From Candidatus Sysuiplasma jiujiangense (GTDB lineage Archaea; Thermoplasmatota; Thermoplasmata; Sysuiplasmatales; Sysuiplasmataceae), in the NCBI GenBank assembly GCA_019721075.1, contig JAHEAD010000009.1, forward strand, positions 1 through 29,887: 29,887 bases of DNA. Reading direction: 5' to 3'. The position numbers were made by a program, and so were the translations under genes. The notes under the pieces were generated by a model that saw nothing but the letters and a program-made list of their open reading frames with translations, did not search any database and was not told the origin of the DNA. Shown here piece after piece: positions 6,535 to 26,856 of the stretch. The stretch's first letter is position 1; each line of letters begins with the position of its first letter.

Positions 6535-7431
6535 TTGCAGTCATCCCCGAAAACTGAAATGACTGTTCCGTACAGGAAATGCGATCTCTTTCCCGGACCT
6601 GGCCAAATTGCATTCTACCACGGAGACGCGGGCGCAATTCTCAGGGAAATCGTTGACGAGAGAAGCGTTGATGTTGTCGTCACATCCCCGCCGTACAACA
6701 TCGGCAAGCCCTACGGTCCATATCAGGACAGACTGCCAAGGGAGAAATACATTGACTGGATTGCCGAAATATGCACATCTGTCGGCAGGGTGCTGTCTGA
6801 CGGAGGTTCCTTTTTTCTGAACCTCGGCCAAATACCGAAGGATCAGTTCCTTCCTCTGGAAATTGCACTACGGCTTAAGGAAAATTTTCACCTGCAGAAC
6901 ACAATCCACTGGGTAAAATCGATATCTGTGCAGAAGAAGGATCAGGTAAATGGAGGCACCGTTACCGAAACTGTGGGGCATGTTAAGCCTCTGAGGAGCG
7001 ACAGGTATCTCAATGACGAACATGAGTACATTTTCCATTTTACACTGCATGGCGATGTCAGCATTGACAAACTCGCAGTCGGTGTGCCCTACAAGGACAA
7101 ATCGAACATAGGCCGATGGCGGAGTGTCCGGTCAGATCTCAGGGACCGTGGAAATGTATGGCACATACCATACAAAACAATACAGAGCAGGAAGCAGAGG
7201 CCGCATCCTGCGACGTTTCCCGTGATGCTTCCCGAATTCTGCATCAAGCTGCATGGGCTCTCAAAGACACGCATGGTGATGGATCCGTTCAACGGCACAG
7301 GAAGCACGGCGCTCGCCTGCGCTTCCCTGAGCAGGAATTATATCGGCATTGACATAAACAGCGCATATCTAGACGAGTCATTCAATGCGGTGAACGACTT
7401 CCTCAGGGAAAAAAGGAACAGAATGTCCTGA
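6535..7431 (+). CDS. Site-specific DNA methyltransferase, beta class (probably N4-cytosine)
   Basis: Catalytic TSPPY precedes HPATFP and the SAM-binding DPFNGTGST. Start uncertain (TTG 6535 or ATG 6559). Confidence 0.9.
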   Translation: MQSSPKTEMTVPYRKCDLFPGPGQIAFYHGDAGAILREIVDERSVDVVVTSPPYNIGKPYGPYQDRLPREKYIDWIAEICTSVGRVLSDGGSFFLNLGQIPKDQFLPLEIALRLKENFHLQNTIHWVKSISVQKKDQVNGGTVTETVGHVKPLRSDRYLNDEHEYIFHFTLHGDVSIDKLAVGVPYKDKSNIGRWRSVRSDLRDRGNVWHIPYKTIQSRKQRPHPATFPVMLPEFCIKLHGLSKTRMVMDPFNGTGSTALACASLSRNYIGIDINSAYLDESFNAVNDFLREKRNRMS

Positions 7432-9987: not shown

Positions 9988-10062
9988 GGGCCCGTAGCTT
10001 AGCCTGGCTGGAGCGCCCGGCTGATAACCGGGAGGTCAAGAGTCCAAATCTCTTCGGGCCCA
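9988..10062 (+). tRNA. tRNA-Ile(GAT), no intron, no encoded CCA
   Basis: GGGCCCG/CGGGCCC acceptor plus discriminator A, D-stem GCTT/GAGC, CCCGG-CT-GAT-AA-CCGGG, T-arm AAGAG-TCCAAAT-CTCTT. Confidence 0.93.
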
Positions 10063-11097: not shown

Positions 11098-12003
11098 TTA
11101 CGAATTGACGGCGTGCCCGCCGAACAGTCTCTTTCTTGTGATTTCGACAGCCGCAGGAGAGACGTCGGCAGCAATCCAGTGTCTCTTCATCTGCCTGGCG
11201 ACAAATGCAGTTGTTCCGGATCCAGAGAAGAAGTCTGCCACAGTGTCCCCTTCGTCCGTTGATGCTGCGATAATTCTCCGGAGCAGTGCTTCCGGTTTCT
11301 GGGTGGGATAGTCGATCTTTTCAGGCTGGTTTCCTCTCAATGCCGGTATATCCCAGACATCGCGCATTTTCACTTCGTTGTAGTAACCGTGCGCATCCTG
11401 CTTTAAGTCGATGTTTCTGAAACCGTATCTGTACATCAGGTACGACTTTTCCTTCAATCTGTTAAATTTATATTTCCCCGTTCGTGAATAGAATAAAATC
11501 GAGTCGTGTTTGCGGCTGAAAGTTTTGTTCCCCGCGCCACCTGTTTTGTAATGCCAGATAATTTCATTCCTGAAGTTTCCATACCCGAAAATTCTGTCCA
11601 TCAGGATCTTCACGTAATGCGAAGCATGCCAGTCGAGATGGACGTAAATGGAACCCGTACTTCTGAGCAACCTCCTCATTTCGAGAAGTCTTGGGTTGAG
11701 CCAGTCCAGGTACGATGAAATACCCCCTTCCCATCTGTCGGCAAATACTTCCGACTTCTTCAATTCGCTGCCAGTCTTGCTGTATCGTCTGTTTGTAAAA
11801 AATGGAGGATCGGCATATATGAGATCCAGAGATTCTGACGGAAGGCCCCCCATTATATTCAGATTGTCACCGCAATAGATGACATCGACCATACCGCGTT
11901 TGACAGCGTCATTGCATAGGATGTCTGGTGCCCGCCCCTCATTTTGAATTTCGACGGAAGACATGAGATAATCGGTCATCGATCCTACTGGATGAACAAG
12001 CAA
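11098..12003 (-). CDS. Site-specific DNA methyltransferase, beta class (probably N6-adenine)
   Basis: GDNL, DLIYADPPF, GSIYVHLDWHASHY, NEIIWHY, YPTQKPEALL, DFFSGSGTT. Start uncertain; conserved part begins near ATG 11892. Confidence 0.9.
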   Translation of the reverse strand: MLVHPVGSMTDYLMSSVEIQNEGRAPDILCNDAVKRGMVDVIYCGDNLNIMGGLPSESLDLIYADPPFFTNRRYSKTGSELKKSEVFADRWEGGISSYLDWLNPRLLEMRRLLRSTGSIYVHLDWHASHYVKILMDRIFGYGNFRNEIIWHYKTGGAGNKTFSRKHDSILFYSRTGKYKFNRLKEKSYLMYRYGFRNIDLKQDAHGYYNEVKMRDVWDIPALRGNQPEKIDYPTQKPEALLRRIIAASTDEGDTVADFFSGSGTTAFVARQMKRHWIAADVSPAAVEITRKRLFGGHAVNS

Positions 12004-20198: not shown

Positions 20199-20780
20199 TT
20201 GTATCAGATTCAATCGAGGCATGGTGTCATAAGGGCTCCCCCGGAACGGCTGGGGGAAGATTACGAATTGCTCATATCTGAGCTGGCTCGTTCCACGTTT
20301 GAAGGAAAGCTGGATACAGAGGGAAAACTGGTCGTCATGGTTTCAAACATAGAACCCGACGGAAACGGGCGTGTCGTTCACGGCGATGGAGGCGTTTTCC
20401 AGTCGCTTAACTACGATGCGCTGCTTTTCCAGCCTTTGCTTCAGGAAGTCGTCGACGGGTATGTTGTCGACGTTATTAAATTCGGCGCATTCGTCAGGTT
20501 TGGCCCTTTCGACGGACTATTGCACATCAGCCAGATCATGGATGATAAACTGGATGTTGATGAAGGCGGAAAGAGAATAATCGGCAAGGAGACAAAGAGA
20601 GACATTAAAGTCGGCGACCGTGTAAGGGCACGCATAATATCCGTCAGCCTCAATGACAAAAATGTCAAGGAGAGCAAGATCGGCCTGACAATGAGACAGA
20701 CGGGGCTCGGCAAGTTCGAATGGATCGAGGAAGACAGGAGCAAGAAGTCCAGGAAGGAGAAGGGAGAAATACCGGCTTAG
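20199..20780 (+). CDS. rpoE1: DNA-directed RNA polymerase subunit E' (Rpo7)
   Basis: MY start (TTG), GDGG, S1 domain FGAFVRFGPFDGLLHISQI, KIGLTMRQxGLGKxEW. Confidence 0.96.
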   Translation: MYQIQSRHGVIRAPPERLGEDYELLISELARSTFEGKLDTEGKLVVMVSNIEPDGNGRVVHGDGGVFQSLNYDALLFQPLLQEVVDGYVVDVIKFGAFVRFGPFDGLLHISQIMDDKLDVDEGGKRIIGKETKRDIKVGDRVRARIISVSLNDKNVKESKIGLTMRQTGLGKFEWIEEDRSKKSRKEKGEIPA

Positions 20781-20985: not shown

Positions 20986-21511
20986 ATTCGATCCGAAGGA
21001 GGATCTCTTCCTTCCGCCGGAACTCAGGAAGGAGCTTTCGAAGCAGTACCAGCCGCTGATAACACCGGGGGAGATTGCTGCGATATCGGAGAGTTGCGCG
21101 ATCGTTGCCGTCGGTGACATGGTCTGCTACACTCTGGTTTCCAGCAGGGTGATCCCAAAGATTTCAGTTTTCGATTTCATGACGGAAAGGCACCGGATAC
21201 CTGAGACCTGGTCCGATACCCTTCTTTCCACGCCAGGGGCGCAGCTGAGTGTCCGCAGTCCTCCCGGCTACCTCAGCCTTGAGATGTGGAACGCGCTGAA
21301 GCTTGCATGGGAGTTTCCCGGTCGGACAAAGATGATTGTGGACGGCGAGGAGGATCTCGCAGGCCTTGCGTCGATTTACCTGATGAAAGGTGCGATTGTT
21401 GTTTACGGCCTTCCTGGCATCGGCATGACGGCGATAAAATCGGACGAAACATCAAGGCAGACGGCATATTCGATACTTGCTGAAATGATACCTGTCTCCA
21501 GAATGAGATGA
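20951..21511 (+). CDS. GTP-dependent dephospho-CoA kinase (DUF359 family)
   Basis: LPPELRxEL, VGD, SPPG, VDGEEDL, VYGxP; conserved position after spt4. Start at 20951 or 20957. Confidence 0.9.
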   Translation: MSMANLRSGSDEFDPKEDLFLPPELRKELSKQYQPLITPGEIAAISESCAIVAVGDMVCYTLVSSRVIPKISVFDFMTERHRIPETWSDTLLSTPGAQLSVRSPPGYLSLEMWNALKLAWEFPGRTKMIVDGEEDLAGLASIYLMKGAIVVYGLPGIGMTAIKSDETSRQTAYSILAEMIPVSRMR

Positions 21512-21601
21512 ACTGATTCCACGGCGCCGGAGGGTCTATACGCAGAATTTAAATGTTAGTTAGATGTAGTGAGTAGAGGAATAAAGGTCGGAGCGATTTA
21601 A

Positions 21602-21937
21602 ATGGACGTTGAAATTACATCAAGGAAGGAAAATCCGCTGCTCAACAGGATTGAAGTCAAGGCAGTGGTAAGGCATGCCAATTCACCCACGCCGGGGAGG
21701 GACGAAGTCAGGGAAGCAGTATCCAGATCACTCGGAAGCGCAAAAGAGGGCGTTGTCGTAGATTCAATGAAGAGCGTATTCGGAAAGCATGAAACTCTTG
21801 TCTTCGCGAAGATATACCCGAAGAAGGAAGATGCGCTCAAACTCGAAAGACGGCACATACTCGTCAGAAACAAGCTTGCGGAAAAGAAGCAGGCGGCACA
21901 GAAAGCGGTAAAGGCAGCGAAGCAGCAGGCGAAGTGA
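21602..21937 (+). CDS. rps24e: 30S ribosomal protein S24e
   Basis: ENPLLNRxE, TPGR, FG, AKIY, ExxHILxRN. Confidence 0.96.
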   Translation: MDVEITSRKENPLLNRIEVKAVVRHANSPTPGRDEVREAVSRSLGSAKEGVVVDSMKSVFGKHETLVFAKIYPKKEDALKLERRHILVRNKLAEKKQAAQKAVKAAKQQAK

Positions 21938-21942
21938 TTTAA

Positions 21943-22101
21943 TTGGCAAAGGGCAGGAACAGCATTTACGAAGTAAAGGACGGAAAGTTGAGCAGAACCA
22001 GGCGTACATGCCCGAAGTGCGGTCCCAGCGTGTTTCTGGCAAAACACAGGAACAGGGTGTCATGCGGAAAATGCGGATACGCTGAATTCGAGAAGAAATA
22101 A
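21943..22101 (+). CDS. rps27ae: 30S ribosomal protein S27ae (52 aa, not in ORF track)
   Basis: Manual translation from TTG: MAKGRNSIYEVKDGKLSRTRRTCPKCGPSVFLAKHRNRVSCGKCGYAEFEKK. Confidence 0.96.
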   Translation: MAKGRNSIYEVKDGKLSRTRRTCPKCGPSVFLAKHRNRVSCGKCGYAEFEKK

Positions 22102-22105
22102 TCCC

Positions 22106-22116
22106 TTTTTTTATAC
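22106..22116 (+). terminator. Oligo-T terminator of the rpoE1-rps27ae operon, overlapping the TATA box of tRNA-Arg
   Basis: T7 run 5 nt after the rps27ae stop continues into TTTATAC, about 25 nt before the tRNA. Confidence 0.5.
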
Positions 22117-22140
22117 AGGAACAGCAGTCACCCGCTATCA

Positions 22141-22248
22141 GGGCCTGTAGTGTAGCGTGGATATCACAGGGGCCTCCGGTTCGTCAGGAGAAAGCCCCGG
22201 ACCCGGGTTCAAAAGAGTGTATTCATTCTGAAACTCCCGGCAGGCCCG
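22141..22248 (+). tRNA. tRNA-Arg(CCG) with two introns: 37/38 (22180-22192) and 59/60 (22214-22234)
   Basis: GGGCCTG/CAGGCCC acceptor plus G; GGGGC-CT-CCG-G[13 nt]A-GCCCC; CCGGG-TTCAAA[21 nt]T-CCCGG. Both insertions fold into BHL/BHB motifs. Confidence 0.9.
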
Positions 22249-22312
22249 CTTATTTGCCTCTGCTTTCCGTTTCATACCGCAGGCGCGTTTCACAGAACCG
22301 GCAAAGTTAAAA

Positions 22313-23065
22313 TTGTTGCAGCGGTGTTCCGATATCGTGCTGAGACTCCAGGGACGTGGACTGGCGGGAGGTTCGATTTCAGGCAGCGCAACACTGATCG
22401 ATATGGATTCCGCCGTAACCGATGACAGGGTTGAATCAGGCATATTCATAATACGCGGCAATCTGTCTGAGGATATCCTGTCTTCGCTTCCGTTCAGGTG
22501 CGGCAAAGATGAGTGCGGCATGGTAATGTGTTCCGGCGTCCTGCCGAACACTCCCGGTTTCGGAAACGGAAACACGGTCGTGGCGGCCTCCGGATTTGAC
22601 TGGGAGTATTTCAGGAATGGCGATTTCGTCCGCATTGACGGAACAAGCGGAACGGTTGAGATCGAGAACGTGACGGGGAAGGAGGTGGTAAATTGCGCTG
22701 TGAAGTATAACGACAGGCTTCTGCTTCTCAAGAGAAGCGGGCTTGTGGGCTCATTCCGGGGAAAATGGGCTTCCGTAAGCGGTTATGTGGAGGAGGGTGA
22801 AACGCCGTATGCTGCCGCCCTGAAGGAACTAAGGGAGGAAATATCGGCGGAAGGAGTCTCCCTGTTAAGGGCGGGGAAGCCGGTGGTAACCAGGAAGGAA
22901 GCCACCGTGTGGATATCCTATCCCTTCCTTTTCACACTCGAAAACGATTCCATCACGATTGACTGGGAACACACTGAATACAGATGGGTAAAACCCGATG
23001 AACTTCCGGCATATGATACTGTCCCGGGTTTCGGAAAGGGCCTGGCTGCACTCGGAATCATCTGA
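22313..23065 (+). CDS. Nudix hydrolase with N-terminal swivel (AcnX small-subunit/DUF126-like) domain
   Basis: N-terminal LQGRGLAGGSISG...GDFVRIDGTSGTVEI; C-terminal LLLLKRS...GKW..VSG and Nudix box GYVEEGETPYAAALKELREEI, DWEHTEYRW. Start uncertain (TTG 22313 or GTG 22337). Confidence 0.8.
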   Translation: MLQRCSDIVLRLQGRGLAGGSISGSATLIDMDSAVTDDRVESGIFIIRGNLSEDILSSLPFRCGKDECGMVMCSGVLPNTPGFGNGNTVVAASGFDWEYFRNGDFVRIDGTSGTVEIENVTGKEVVNCAVKYNDRLLLLKRSGLVGSFRGKWASVSGYVEEGETPYAAALKELREEISAEGVSLLRAGKPVVTRKEATVWISYPFLFTLENDSITIDWEHTEYRWVKPDELPAYDTVPGFGKGLAALGII

Positions 23066-23067
23066 AT

Positions 23068-26000
23068 TCAGATGATTTTGTCGACCTCTTTCTGCAGAAC
23101 CTTCAGATCCTTCTCATTCATGGACTCGGGATTGACCGAAAGCAGAAGTATAGACTTAGATTTTGCCGCTGTATCCTTCAGGTACTGGATCAGCCGGACA
23201 ACTGAAGCAAATGTGTTGTTTGATATCAGATATTCTGTACCGTCAATAAACGCAATTCCCGAGTCCTTTGAGAAGAAGTCATTGACCTGGAGGGAGATTG
23301 TCTCCAGATCACTCGGTTTCACTGCATTTTTACCGCCGACCGCGGTAAGCCATATTATCCTGCAGTTGCTGACACCGTATTTCTTTTCGAGCTTCTCCGG
23401 GAATTCCCTTGTGATAAGAAATCCGTTCAGGCCGCTCTCCATGGCAGATCTGAATATCGCCATTCCTTTGTCGGGCTTGTCCTCGAAAATCGCATACGTT
23501 TCACCTGACTCAATGACGAATGTTTCATCCTCCTCCGTAGCCGCTGGAGCCTGCTGTTCCGGCGCAGTCTCGGCCGCACTCTTTTCCTGCGCAGGCTGTG
23601 CGGCTTCGGGCTGTGCGGCAGCCTTCGTCCTGGAAAGAGCTATCACGAGATCATTCCTGTCTATCTTCCAGGCTTCCTTCAATTCACCCGCGGCATTTGC
23701 TACAATCTCGAGAGATCCTATCCTGCACTCCGATGAGATTACGCTGTTCCATTCAACTATCGCTTCAAGGAGCGACCCGGATGTTGCTATCTGTGCGTGC
23801 ACGTACTCGTCCACGTTCAGGCCCATTTCCTTTCTCATCTTCTGTATCCTGCGCATGACCTCCCTTGAGAGTGATTCAAGCTCCAGTTTCCTGTCCATGT
23901 TGAAATCAACATAAACGGTTGCGAAAGGAAGATCAATCTGGGCGACATTGCGCGGAAGCGTGTAGCTGAAAGACACCATGTTCTCCTCGATCTTGATTGT
24001 CTGTCCCTCTATACCGAGGGAATAAGAACCTCCCTTGATGCCGTTTATAACCTCCGCTGCCGGTCTTATCTTGAGCATCATTGCAATTTTACCTGACCAC
24101 TGCCGGTAAACCTTTCCTATTGCGTTTGGATCCGGCACAACAGTGAGAACGAGTTCCTCCCATTCCTGCGCCGGCTGAAGCAGTTTGCTCGACTTTGCGT
24201 TGCACTGCTTCTCAATGATATCGAGCATCCTGCCTATGCTCTTCCTGTTACTGTCGTCGACCGGCTTTATGACGATCCTCGAAAGGGGCCACCTGAGCTT
24301 CATACCCGTCTCCTGTCTTGATTTCAGGACCGCCTCGACGATCTGCCTGGCAAGCACCATATCGGCTTCCAGTTTTGCGTCCCTGAGCACATCGATGACC
24401 TCCGGCCATGTGGAAAGATGAACGGAGAGCGCTTCAGGATTCATGGCCCTGAATATTTCCTCAGAAATAAAAGGCGTGAACGGCGCCAGCAGTTTTGATA
24501 CCGCAGTAAGGACATAATGCAGAACTGTGTATGTTTCCGCTTTTTCCCTGCTTTCCTCTTCAGTCCATGTCCTGTCCCTCACCATTCTGACGTACCAGCG
24601 GGAAAGGTCCTCCACAATGAAATCATCAATTGAGCGCAGTGCCTTATGGACCTCCAGTGCATCGATTAAACCTGTGGCATCTCCAATAACGGACTGCGTC
24701 TTCGAAAGTATCCATCTGTCTTCGATCTTCAGCGATCCTGCAAGAGCCTTCCAGTCAACGGGTGAACTCTTGAAATTATCAAGCGACATATACGTGGATG
24801 CGAAATTGTAGACATTCCAGAGTATGTTGAGCGTCTTTCGTGCATTCTTCGGACCATCCTGCTGAAATGAAATATCATCCCATGGGGCCCTTGAGCCGAG
24901 AATATAGAAGCGCAGGGCATCTGCCCCGTCGCTTTCTATTACTTCCATCGGGTCGACAACGTTGCCGAGGCTCTTGTGCATCTGCCTGCCTCTCGAATCG
25001 TTGACCCAGCCATGCAGAAGAGCCGACTCGAACGGTGCCCTGTTGAACATAATCAGCGATGTGGCAATCTGGGAATTGAACCATCCCCTTGTCTGATCTC
25101 CTGCCTCGGTTATCCATTTGCCAGGCCACCAGATGTCGAATTCCTTCCTGTCGGCGTTGTAATTGAGGGATGCCCATGAGCAGATGCCGGAATCGAACCA
25201 GACGTCAAGCACATCCGGTACTCTATTCATCTCCCCCCCGCACTTCTCGCACTTGAATACAACAGCGTCAATCGATGGTCTGTGCAGGTCCATTCCTTCG
25301 ACGTAGTTGCGCCCGCCTGAAAGTTCCGAGACAGAGGATATCAGCCGTTCCGAGCTGCATTTGGCGCATCTCCACACGGGAATTGGTGTCCCCCAGAAGC
25401 GCTGACGCGAAATGCACCAGTCCTTCAGGTTCCTGGCCCATTCTGCCTGTCTGGACGAGCCGGCCCAGTCAGGCACCCATTTTATCCTGTTTATCTCCTC
25501 AAGCATTCGTTCCCTGAGCTCTGTGGCCCTTATGTACCACTGCATCGTGGAACGGTAGATTATAGGCGTTTTGCATCTCCAGCAGTTGCCGTACCTGTGT
25601 TTTATCCTTCCGGAATAATAAAGCAGCCCCGTCCGTTTCAGTTCGCCGATTATTAAGTCGTTGCACTGGCTTACCCGTTTTCTGCTGATGTCTTTTCCTG
25701 CATCATCTGAATAGGTACCGTCGTCCAGCACGGGACAGTATATATCCAGATTGAATTTTTTCCCGAGATTGAAATCTTCAGGCCCGTGGCCAGGGGCAGT
25801 GTGGACAAGCCCGGTGTATTCCAGTTCCACGCTATCCGACGGTATTACCTTCCAGCTCCATTCCCCTTCCTTGCCTTTTTTGGCAAAACCCTCCAGCGGA
25901 AATGTGTATGCTTTGCCCACCAGATCGCTTCCCTTCATCACCCTGACGATCTCGTATTCCTCCTGGTCAGACAGCGAGCCTATTTCCTCTGCCTTCTGCT

Positions 26001-26778
26001 CCAGAACGATGAGTTTCTCGGTAATCTGCCCCTTCTTTCTGTACTCCACCTCTGCATAATCCATATCGGGGTGCACTGCGACTGCCATGTTGGCAACCAG
26101 TGTCCAGGGAGTGGTCGTCCAGATGAGCAGCGAATAATCGCTGTCCTTCAGGGGAAAGCGGACATAAATGCTCGGATCTTCTTTCTCGACGTACTCTATC
26201 TCCGCCTCTGCAAGCGCTGTTCCGCATCTGTAACACCACTGGGTGCTCCTCTCGCCAAGGAACAGGAGTCCGGCATCCATTGCCTTTTTGAGAGTCAACC
26301 ATGCCGTCTCGGTGAATGAGCGCTCGATTGTCATGTACGGCTTGTCCCAGTCCATCCAGACACCCAGACGCCTGAACTGCTGCGTCATATTGTTGAGATT
26401 CTTAAGCGCGAATTTTCTGCATTCGGAGACAAACCTGTCAATGCCAATCTTCTCTATATCCTTCTTTGTCTTTATGCCGAACGACTTCTCGACGTTGACT
26501 TCAATGGGAAGGCCATGCATGTCCCAGCCCGGCTGATCGCGGACATTGTAGCCGTTCATCCGCCAGAAGCGTATCCTCAGATCCTTGAGCGACTTGTTCA
26601 GGGCGGTGCCCGCGTGGATGTCGCCGGTAGTGTACGGAGGCCCGTCCAGAAAATAAATTTTCTGTCCTTCGCTGCGCATGCTTTTGAGCTTGCCGTAAAT
26701 GTCGCTGTTTGACCAGTATTCGGCTATTTCCCTTTCCACCTTGGCGGGATCGTAATTTCCTTCAGCTTTCTTTATCAT
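23068..26778 (-). CDS. ileS: Isoleucine--tRNA ligase (archaeal/type 2) with C-terminal DUF835-like domain
   Basis: DGPPY..G.IHAGT, GWDMHGLPIE, WTTTPWTL, GLVHTAPGHG, DWCISRQRFWG, DVWFDSG, DQTRGWF, QMHKSLGN. Start placed at ATG 26778 (GGTG RBS); 26790 also possible. Confidence 0.96.
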   Translation of the reverse strand: MIKKAEGNYDPAKVEREIAEYWSNSDIYGKLKSMRSEGQKIYFLDGPPYTTGDIHAGTALNKSLKDLRIRFWRMNGYNVRDQPGWDMHGLPIEVNVEKSFGIKTKKDIEKIGIDRFVSECRKFALKNLNNMTQQFRRLGVWMDWDKPYMTIERSFTETAWLTLKKAMDAGLLFLGERSTQWCYRCGTALAEAEIEYVEKEDPSIYVRFPLKDSDYSLLIWTTTPWTLVANMAVAVHPDMDYAEVEYRKKGQITEKLIVLEQKAEEIGSLSDQEEYEIVRVMKGSDLVGKAYTFPLEGFAKKGKEGEWSWKVIPSDSVELEYTGLVHTAPGHGPEDFNLGKKFNLDIYCPVLDDGTYSDDAGKDISRKRVSQCNDLIIGELKRTGLLYYSGRIKHRYGNCWRCKTPIIYRSTMQWYIRATELRERMLEEINRIKWVPDWAGSSRQAEWARNLKDWCISRQRFWGTPIPVWRCAKCSSERLISSVSELSGGRNYVEGMDLHRPSIDAVVFKCEKCGGEMNRVPDVLDVWFDSGICSWASLNYNADRKEFDIWWPGKWITEAGDQTRGWFNSQIATSLIMFNRAPFESALLHGWVNDSRGRQMHKSLGNVVDPMEVIESDGADALRFYILGSRAPWDDISFQQDGPKNARKTLNILWNVYNFASTYMSLDNFKSSPVDWKALAGSLKIEDRWILSKTQSVIGDATGLIDALEVHKALRSIDDFIVEDLSRWYVRMVRDRTWTEEESREKAETYTVLHYVLTAVSKLLAPFTPFISEEIFRAMNPEALSVHLSTWPEVIDVLRDAKLEADMVLARQIVEAVLKSRQETGMKLRWPLSRIVIKPVDDSNRKSIGRMLDIIEKQCNAKSSKLLQPAQEWEELVLTVVPDPNAIGKVYRQWSGKIAMMLKIRPAAEVINGIKGGSYSLGIEGQTIKIEENMVSFSYTLPRNVAQIDLPFATVYVDFNMDRKLELESLSREVMRRIQKMRKEMGLNVDEYVHAQIATSGSLLEAIVEWNSVISSECRIGSLEIVANAAGELKEAWKIDRNDLVIALSRTKAAAQPEAAQPAQEKSAAETAPEQQAPAATEEDETFVIESGETYAIFEDKPDKGMAIFRSAMESGLNGFLITREFPEKLEKKYGVSNCRIIWLTAVGGKNAVKPSDLETISLQVNDFFSKDSGIAFIDGTEYLISNNTFASVVRLIQYLKDTAAKSKSILLLSVNPESMNEKDLKVLQKEVDKII

Positions 26779-26856
26779 CGAAAGCACCATCGACTTTCTA
26801 ACCACTACAGGGCTTCTGTATTTAATTATCACCCATTGAGTTAGCCTTTCTGACCT

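Follow-up and report, generated by a model that had tools for sequence, protein, structure and literature searches.

A tRNA-Arg(CCG) gene with a canonical and a T-loop intron in Candidatus Sysuiplasma jiujiangense and its counterparts across Thermoplasmata

We analyzed a tRNA-Arg(CCG) gene of Candidatus Sysuiplasma jiujiangense that lies on the forward strand of the window, the 29,887-nucleotide stretch of contig JAHEAD010000009.1 to which plain coordinates refer. The gene is interrupted at the canonical position 37/38 and, a second time, at position 59/60 in the T-loop. It is very probably a real, spliced gene of old standing, whose expression and cleavage we infer. By itself it represents no new type of element: such genes are known and occur across the class, and 59/60 is a common intron site, also in lineages with an alpha'2 splicing endonuclease.

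Anatomy and folding of the gene

The first-pass annotation had described a double-intron tRNA-Arg(CCG) at 22141-22248 (+), and its coordinates and pairings were confirmed. Excision of 22180-22192 and 22214-22234 yielded a 74-nt cloverleaf that ARAGORN calls as tRNA-Arg(CCG). Each of the two cuts has a single possible register, and the cut in the T-loop leaves a loop of 7 nt. ARAGORN made no call on the precursor, nor on the form retaining the T-loop insert. The gene and its neighbors are laid out as follows.

20199-20780, rpoE (NCBIfam NF006333)
21943-22101 (+), rps27ae, the upstream neighbor (NCBIfam NF001669, above cut-off), which ends the rpoE ... rps24e-rps27ae cluster
22106-22117 (+), T-run or TATA-like box, about 24 nt 5' of the mature end, read from the sequence
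22141-22179 (+), exon 1, tRNA positions 1-37, with anticodon CCG at 22176-22178 and G37 at 22179
22180-22192 (+), intron 1, 13 nt, canonical 37/38, relaxed hBH/BHL
22193-22213 (+), exon 2, positions 38-59: 3' anticodon stem, variable loop, 5' T-stem, TTCAAA
22214-22234 (+), intron 2, 21 nt, non-canonical 59/60 in the T-loop, strict hBHBh'
22235-22248 (+), exon 3, positions 60-73, with discriminator G73; CCA is not encoded
22337-23065 (+), NUDIX-domain protein, the downstream neighbor (Pfam PF00293, E 1e-16)

Intron 2 has all the elements of a strict hBHBh' motif. The exon helix h is the 5-bp T-stem (22203-22207/22236-22240), the central helix comprises four Watson-Crick pairs (TTCA 22208-22211/TGAA 22229-22232), and the outer helix h' comprises five pairs, including one G-U (22215-22219/22224-22228). 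Its two 3-nt bulges read AA/A and AC/T, and the predicted cut falls after the second bulge base. Four Watson-Crick central pairs together with five outer pairs appeared in just 19 of 200,000 shuffles of the 21-nt intron. Intron 1 also has a central helix of four Watson-Crick pairs (CTCC/GGAG), which was reached by 1,078 of 200,000 shuffles; its outer helix consists of a single pair, which makes it a relaxed hBH/BHL motif and not a strict BHB, in line with the BHL-like reading first given to it.

We folded the naked precursor with ViennaRNA under the nearest-neighbor model. The BHB conformer of intron 2 lies 2.3 kcal/mol above the minimum free energy, because the first intron base lengthens the outer helix instead. 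The central helix of intron 2 has a pairing probability of about 5% and is thus a predicted minor state; the outer helix of intron 2 and the central helix of intron 1 both exceed 99%.

The first-pass annotation had suggested that standard tRNA finders may miss or miscall this gene, and ARAGORN and Rfam did miss it. At the default threshold ARAGORN failed to report it in the window and in the whole genome, with or without the -i option, and Rfam returned 0 matches at E<=1 on 21500-22800. A relaxed ARAGORN threshold (-ps85) gave mostly noise, and -i assigned wrong anticodons to many intron-bearing genes. Many tRNAs of this family escape ARAGORN and Rfam or are assigned wrongly by them, which makes the genomes look less complete.

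A T-rich box lies at a comparable distance in the family relatives L004-L012, and judging from its sequence the box at 22106-22117 may also terminate the rps24e-rps27ae transcript. A scan for sigma-70 promoters and terminators, which is unsuited to archaea, gave a single terminator-like match at chance level. We take 21602-21937 to be S24e; NCBIfam gives no match there. The 1254-aa open reading frame (ORF) at 23068-26832, which is presumably IleRS-like, carries a C-terminal extension of about 200 aa behind a low-complexity linker. Elsewhere in the window, an ORF of 355 aa (9-1076) at the end of the contig resembles a transposase by eye, although Pfam gives no match. N6/N4 DNA methyltransferases are encoded separately at 6535-7431 and 11098-12003.

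tRNA introns and splicing endonuclease gene of the genome

An intron-tolerant profile search of the whole genome (2.29 Mb, 97% complete) detected 48 tRNA genes, which together account for every one of the 46 anticodons expected in archaea. tRNA-Arg(CCG) occurs once among them, at 22141-22248, and its spliced form fills an anticodon gap; an intact second copy was looked for among the 48 genes, and there was none. Half of the genes (24/48, 50%) bear introns, 27 in total. Twenty-one lie at 37/38, with a median length of 14 nt, three at 59/60 (Arg CCG, Lys CTT, Lys TTT), and three in the D-loop at 20/21 (Ala CGC, Thr GGT, Lys TTT), so that the non-canonical introns are spread over five genes. For the D-loop introns, placements at 20a/20b or 19/20 were replaced by 20/21, where the central helices are equal and the outer helices longer, in agreement with a tRNAscan-SE call.

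The two classes of intron differ in their motifs. Four central and at least two outer pairs are found in 6/6 non-canonical introns versus 4/21 canonical ones (Fisher p 0.0007, a value that overstates the difference because the orthologs are related and introns were placed with a BHB bonus). Among the canonical introns, 17/21 lack the strict motif and the central helix is mismatched in 8/21. Two of the three D-loop introns lack a contiguous exon-side helix and belong to the relaxed HBh' type.

Several other tRNA genes of the genome are unusual. The tRNA-Lys(TTT) gene (C23:35639-35746) has C instead of U55 (TCC at 54-56), as does L012. In tRNA-Lys(TTT) this C55 occurs in 10/10 family genomes, and the intron partner is altered to match (TCCG/CGGA), so the C is present at splicing; it may reflect loss of Psi55 or later C-to-U editing. 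A C also replaces the near-invariant U55 in the T-loop of tRNA-Ile GAT in the window (9988-10062; TCC at 54-56). An initiator-type tRNA-Met (C6:62345-62432) has a 13-nt intron at 37/38. The tRNA-Trp gene (C3:63359-63533) has a 102-nt intron of box C/D guide type, with motifs identified by eye; in families f2, f17, f25, and f40 the tRNA-Trp gene also has a 59/60 intron. An extra, divergent, intron-less tRNA-Asn(GTT) lies at C8:33525-33596, and tRNA-Gln(CTG) is present in two identical copies (C9:8230-8302 and C12:213820-213892). The second tRNA-Asn(GTT) and the duplicate tRNA-Gln(CTG) are possibly borne on mobile elements or duplicated at integration sites.

The genome has one RtcB gene and a single EndA gene (C23:48326-49387), whose 354-aa product matches PF01974 and PF02778 in two stretches each; tblastn at E<=1 found no EndA paralog in the genome, and there is no separate beta subunit. 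The first-pass annotation had suggested classifying the enzyme, and by its sequence EndA appears to be of the alpha'2 type, with tandem structural and catalytic units in one gene. Its best PDB matches are the fused enzyme of M. kandleri (5x89, E 4e-32) and the enzymes of A. fulgidus and M. jannaschii, and Y293, H301, K332, and R325 align to catalytic and bulge-stacking residues. Loop positions were taken from PMC3488258 and PMC5829648. At the ASL graft site the protein aligns to A. fulgidus without insertion, the CSL of A. pernix and PDB 2cv8, 10-11 residues long, is missing, its Y-to-H loop (the L3 site) is short and without insertion, and no insertion of more than one residue was seen relative to M. 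jannaschii and M. kandleri. The CSL (L1), ASL (L2), and L3 of broad-specificity EndA thus appear to be absent. Both units retain full N-terminal subdomains, unlike the 289-305 aa enzymes of T. acidophilum and A. fulgidus, on which much EndA biochemistry rests.

According to our model, the precursor would be transcribed from the TATA-like box at 22106-22117, and both introns would be excised by the genome's sole EndA, a two-unit alpha'2 enzyme without a specificity loop. The T-loop intron, as a self-contained strict BHB, would be cut first, and its removal would restore the T-loop and the tRNA body. The relaxed BHL at 37/38 would be cut afterwards, in the full-length-tRNA mode described for A. 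fulgidus alpha'2. RtcB would then join the exons, and CCA would be added. Ordered splicing is suggested by the non-canonical introns keeping their helices while the 37/38 introns are relaxed. We give an even chance to the proposal that the enzyme treats the two introns differently, in an ordered two-mode splicing that would proceed from the T-loop to 37/38.

Published work bears on both modes. A review (PMC6379350) credits the alpha'2 enzyme of A. fulgidus with the removal of BHL introns at 37/38 from full-length pre-tRNA. A relaxed 59/60 intron was hardly cleaved by the wild-type EndA of this species (PMC3488258), and an intron of HBh' type was cut poorly by A. fulgidus EndA in vitro (PMC5829648). 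The D-loop introns suit the two-mode model less well: because two of the three lack a contiguous exon-side helix, an enzyme confined to strict motifs cannot explain everything. The view of alpha2 enzymes as strict is weakened by a report that homodimeric and heterotetrameric forms cut BHL-like motifs (PMC8707768).

Alternatively, the alpha'2 EndA of about 350 aa could be broadly specific by other means or through a helper factor, and the introns could be cut independently and in any order. We regard this as a serious, though somewhat improbable, alternative. It would accommodate the canonical introns, with the strict motif missing from 17 of 21 and the central mismatch in eight, as well as the D-loop introns without a contiguous exon helix. 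The full N-terminal subdomains in both units, not shared by the T. acidophilum and A. fulgidus enzymes, also speak for it, as do two families, f13 and f18, whose EndA is short (299 and 292 aa) and divergent, like the T. acidophilum enzyme, and in which none of the 5/5 genomes gave a match to the T-loop pattern. However, relaxed specificity would free the non-canonical introns from strictness, yet 6/6 of them keep both helices. No insert or residue separates the enzymes of genomes with the Arg 59/60 intron from those of genomes without it; an alignment of the enzymes of 30 relatives contained no lineage-specific EndA insert that tracks the intron. Methanosarcina also has the long form of the enzyme and gave no paired T-stem match.

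Relatives and origin of the 59/60 intron

Both introns of tRNA-Arg(CCG) occur at the same sites in 9/9 family relatives, where the intron interiors have diverged and the exons have not; the equivalents of intron 1 are 11-15 nt long. The tRNA-Arg(CCG) gene of L041 (Ca. Sysuiplasmataceae) is identical to that of the family member L010, and other close matches come from records titled Thermoplasmata. Metagenomes holding the gene derive from mine drainage, tailings, and sediment.

We examined at least 150 loci as Arg(CCG) orthologs, with a search pattern that favors genes resembling this one. The matches listed contain 96 distinct archaeal-type Arg(CCG) genes: 30 are intron-free, 12 have the 37/38 intron only, 32 have 37/38 and 59/60, 5 have 59/60 only, 10 have D-loop and 59/60 introns, 3 have a D-loop intron only, and 4 have three introns. 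An insert exactly at 59/60 is consequently found in 51 of the 96. In these 51 listed orthologs, exon base 57 and its intron partner form G-C in 27, A-T in 20, and are unpaired in 4, so that the pair is kept in 47/51; in one listed ortholog TTCA/TGAA has become TCCA/TGGA. The 51 orthologs are related, which leaves few independent changes, and pairing is kept through them. This covariation argues for selection on the T-loop BHB motif despite its weak predicted fold. Among the same matches, an all-Watson-Crick central helix is present in 42/51 introns at 59/60 versus 19/48 at 37/38; the difference is smaller for at least two outer pairs (45/51 and 36/48).

In a panel of 41 genomes, the Arg(CCG) 59/60 intron was found in eight families (f1, f3, f4, f10, f12, f14, f15, and f16), that is, the organism's own family and seven other Thermoplasmata families. 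Where seen, Arg(CCG) lacks it in f2, f6, f9, f11, and f17. Of the 18 Thermoplasmata families sampled, 14 have a verified 59/60 intron in at least one tRNA; none was found in f5 and f7 (78% and 74% complete) or in f13 and f18. The family of the organism has the shortest introns, with a median of 14 versus 22.5 nt at 37/38 (10 versus 38 genes) and of 19 versus 28 nt at 59/60 (10 versus 41 genes). The degenerate T-loop pattern gave 120 matches in the 41 genomes, of which 90 were examined: 52 were tRNAs with a 59/60 intron, 2 were intron-less tRNAs, and 36 were uncalled. Of the uncalled matches, 14 were read by eye, and 4 of these proved to be tRNA-Trp genes whose length exceeded what the finder accepts. 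Because the pattern is noisy, phylum-wide pattern counts were not used as intron counts.

A stricter scan beyond Thermoplasmata gave at least 120 loci, and 73 of the 80 named loci examined were tRNAs with 59/60 introns. Twenty-five of the 73 belong to records labeled Thermoplasmata, Thermoplasmatota, Methanomassiliicoccales, or Methanoplasma, and the rest to DPANN, Asgard, Nitrososphaerota, Hadarchaeota, and others. We distrusted the label "uncultured Methanosarcinales", since in our judgment several of the tRNAs so labeled are unlike methanogen tRNAs. In the class of Methanosarcina, one shared paired match was found in 9/31 genomes. All six loci fetched (L418-L422 and L425) are tRNA-Ser(CGA) genes with D-loop and 59/60 introns, and genomes of this class with the tRNA-Ser(CGA) introns have a two-unit EndA without CSL in 3/3 tested.

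The survey also turned up genes of other layouts. Three-intron tRNA-Arg(CCG) and tRNA-Lys(TTT) genes (D-loop, 37/38, and 59/60) occur in Thermoplasmata-related genomes (L024, L036, L077, L133, L136, L214, L220, L235, L236, and L407). The tRNA-Arg(CCG) of L108, a Ca. Proteinoplasmatales record, has a 146-nt intron at 59/60, long enough to leave room for a guide RNA or a repeat. Three records with bacterial titles (L034, L303, and L323) contain archaeal-type tRNA genes, two of them with 59/60 introns; these are probably mis-binned or mislabeled contigs. In some genomes (L401, L402, and others of f21 and f50), identical or near-identical 59/60 introns are found in different tRNAs of one genome, which points to probable intron copying in that group.

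The first-pass annotation had proposed that this lineage has acquired non-canonical introns, possibly by intron transposition. The distribution goes against a special acquisition and removes the novelty: 59/60 introns are present in 9/9 family genomes and in 14/18 families, and in the same tRNA in the seven other families. Transposition found no support in this genome. The best explanation is that the Arg(CCG) 59/60 intron is old in much of Thermoplasmata and was inherited and shortened here, with no recent local gain; common ancestry of the introns is inferred. On a tree of EndA the Arg 59/60 state changes 4 times, the base is open, and the starred branches force only 1 change, in an analysis in which 6/32 rows are unlabeled and G031 (truncated) and the Thermoplasmatales-type enzymes were excluded. 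There may have been one origin with losses.

A recent gain by copying from another tRNA gene is very unlikely. In its favor, the 59/60 site is common to three tRNAs of the genome, and copying happens elsewhere, as tRNA-Ala CGC and tRNA-Leu CAG of the more distant G096 have identical 13-nt introns at 59/60. Against it, 38% of shuffles scored at least as well as the best pair among the 26 short introns of the genome, and a search allowing up to 3 substitutions found the 21-nt intron nowhere else in the genome; membership in the transposed-intron group of Thermoproteales type was considered and dropped, as no introns of the genome are more similar between tRNA species than chance would give. Furthermore, the intron resides in the same tRNA across eight families, and intron interiors have diverged within the family while the exons have not.

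The inserts also recur in other sequencing data. An assembly artefact was sought, and both inserts were present in contigs from 3/3 DNA runs examined (X8, X12, and X13, from three other studies), with one change inside the T-loop intron, 22219 G to A, in X8 and X12; X12 is near-identical and may lack independence. The RNA run X20 (share 0.10) yielded one 186-nt contig, covering 21725-21908, in the upstream ribosomal-protein gene, and it is uninformative on splicing because this contig stops short of the tRNA. No joints turned up in any of the runs, and neither spliced RNA nor a circular intron was observed. That the T-loop insert is an artefact, or the gene a pseudogene whose CGG codons are read by tRNA-Arg(UCG), is extremely improbable: tRNA-Arg(TCG) is present in the genome and could serve CGG, which tRNA-Arg(UCG) could read via wobble, and the only RNA run does not reach the tRNA, but the T-loop insert is found in independent DNA contigs, every stem is intact, and position and covariation are kept in the 51 distinct orthologs among the matches listed.

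Known systems and significance

One of the closest published cases is the tRNA-Lys(TTT) of Ca. Methanomassiliicoccus intestinalis, in which tRNAscan-SE 2.0 calls an equivalent 59/60 intron, in the layout 20/21 plus 59/60 (PMC8450103). This is a double-intron gene of the same class, with an intron after GGTTCGAA (59/60), and its layout is that of the tRNA-Lys(TTT) of the genome studied here. Its introns are longer (34 and 31 nt) and the tRNA is a different one, whereas the partner intron in Arg(CCG) is at 37/38. The case is a database row (File S1) that the available text portions do not discuss. ARMAN-2 (Ca. Micrarchaeum acidiphilum) has 59/60 introns in pre-tRNA-Cys(GCA) and -Pro(GGG) (PMC3239211). 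It shares with our organism the 59/60 site, the acid mine habitat, and a high proportion of disrupted tRNA genes (56% versus 50% here). However, ARMAN-2 has a three-unit epsilon2 EndA with ASL and a relaxed hBH at 59/60, and our organism a loop-less two-unit alpha'2 enzyme and a strict 59/60 motif.

Other systems combine part of these traits. Methanopyrus kandleri pre-tRNA-Glu(UUC), with introns at 20b/21 and 37/38, is a multi-intron gene alongside a loop-less EndA, as here (PMC5829648); it is one exceptional gene with an (alpha-beta)2 enzyme, in contrast to five genes and what appears to be a natural two-unit homodimer type. Archaeoglobus fulgidus resembles our organism in its alpha'2 EndA and relaxed canonical introns (PMC6379350); its structural unit is shorter, at 305 aa versus 354 aa here, and T- or D-loop introns are unreported in the available text portions. 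Korarchaeum cryptofilum likewise combines a two-unit alpha2 EndA with non-canonical and multiple introns, but its enzyme bears the CSL that this EndA lacks (PMC4033280).

According to the same paper, no alpha2 archaeon other than Korarchaeum has non-canonical introns, and multi-intron tRNAs are known from Crenarchaeota, N. equitans, M. kandleri, M. thermautotrophicus, Korarchaeum, and ARMAN (PMC4033280). Euryarchaeota with alpha4 or alpha2 enzymes are described as having introns in <10% of tRNA genes, each a single canonical intron (PMC4090602). With 24/48 interrupted genes, 6 non-canonical introns, and a loop-less alpha'2 enzyme, this genome and its relatives contradict these statements, as they stand in the available portions of the two papers. 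Other studies describe coevolution between EndA loops and introns (PMC5829648, PMC12397907). An Asgard preprint reports that intron load is not explained by EndA and, in its available text, has no mention of Thermoplasma or words built on it (10.64898/2026.10.13.758758); the available portions of a Methanomassiliicoccales genome paper mention just a group II intron (PMC4153887). A search of the non-subscription literature, which covered papers on Sysuiplasma poorly, found no paper devoted to non-canonical tRNA introns of Thermoplasmata.

We tentatively propose, at somewhat less than even chances, that non-canonical and multiple introns characterize Thermoplasmata as a class, along with part of the class of Methanosarcina, and are handled by a loop-less alpha'2 enzyme under the two-mode rule. 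With a strict and a relaxed intron in one 108-nt substrate, tRNA-Arg(CCG) offers a convenient single test of a fixed splicing order. If the proposal is true, intron position would be set by the two-mode rule and not by enzyme architecture. Introns outside the anticodon loop would have to retain central and outer helices; those at 37/38 may decay to a minimal BHL, read together with the tRNA body, and splicing would be forced into an order. The family studied here would be extreme, with half of its tRNA genes interrupted, mostly by relaxed, eukaryote-like introns of 12-15 nt, and the textbook rule would stem from a reduced exception, the well-studied Thermoplasmatales.
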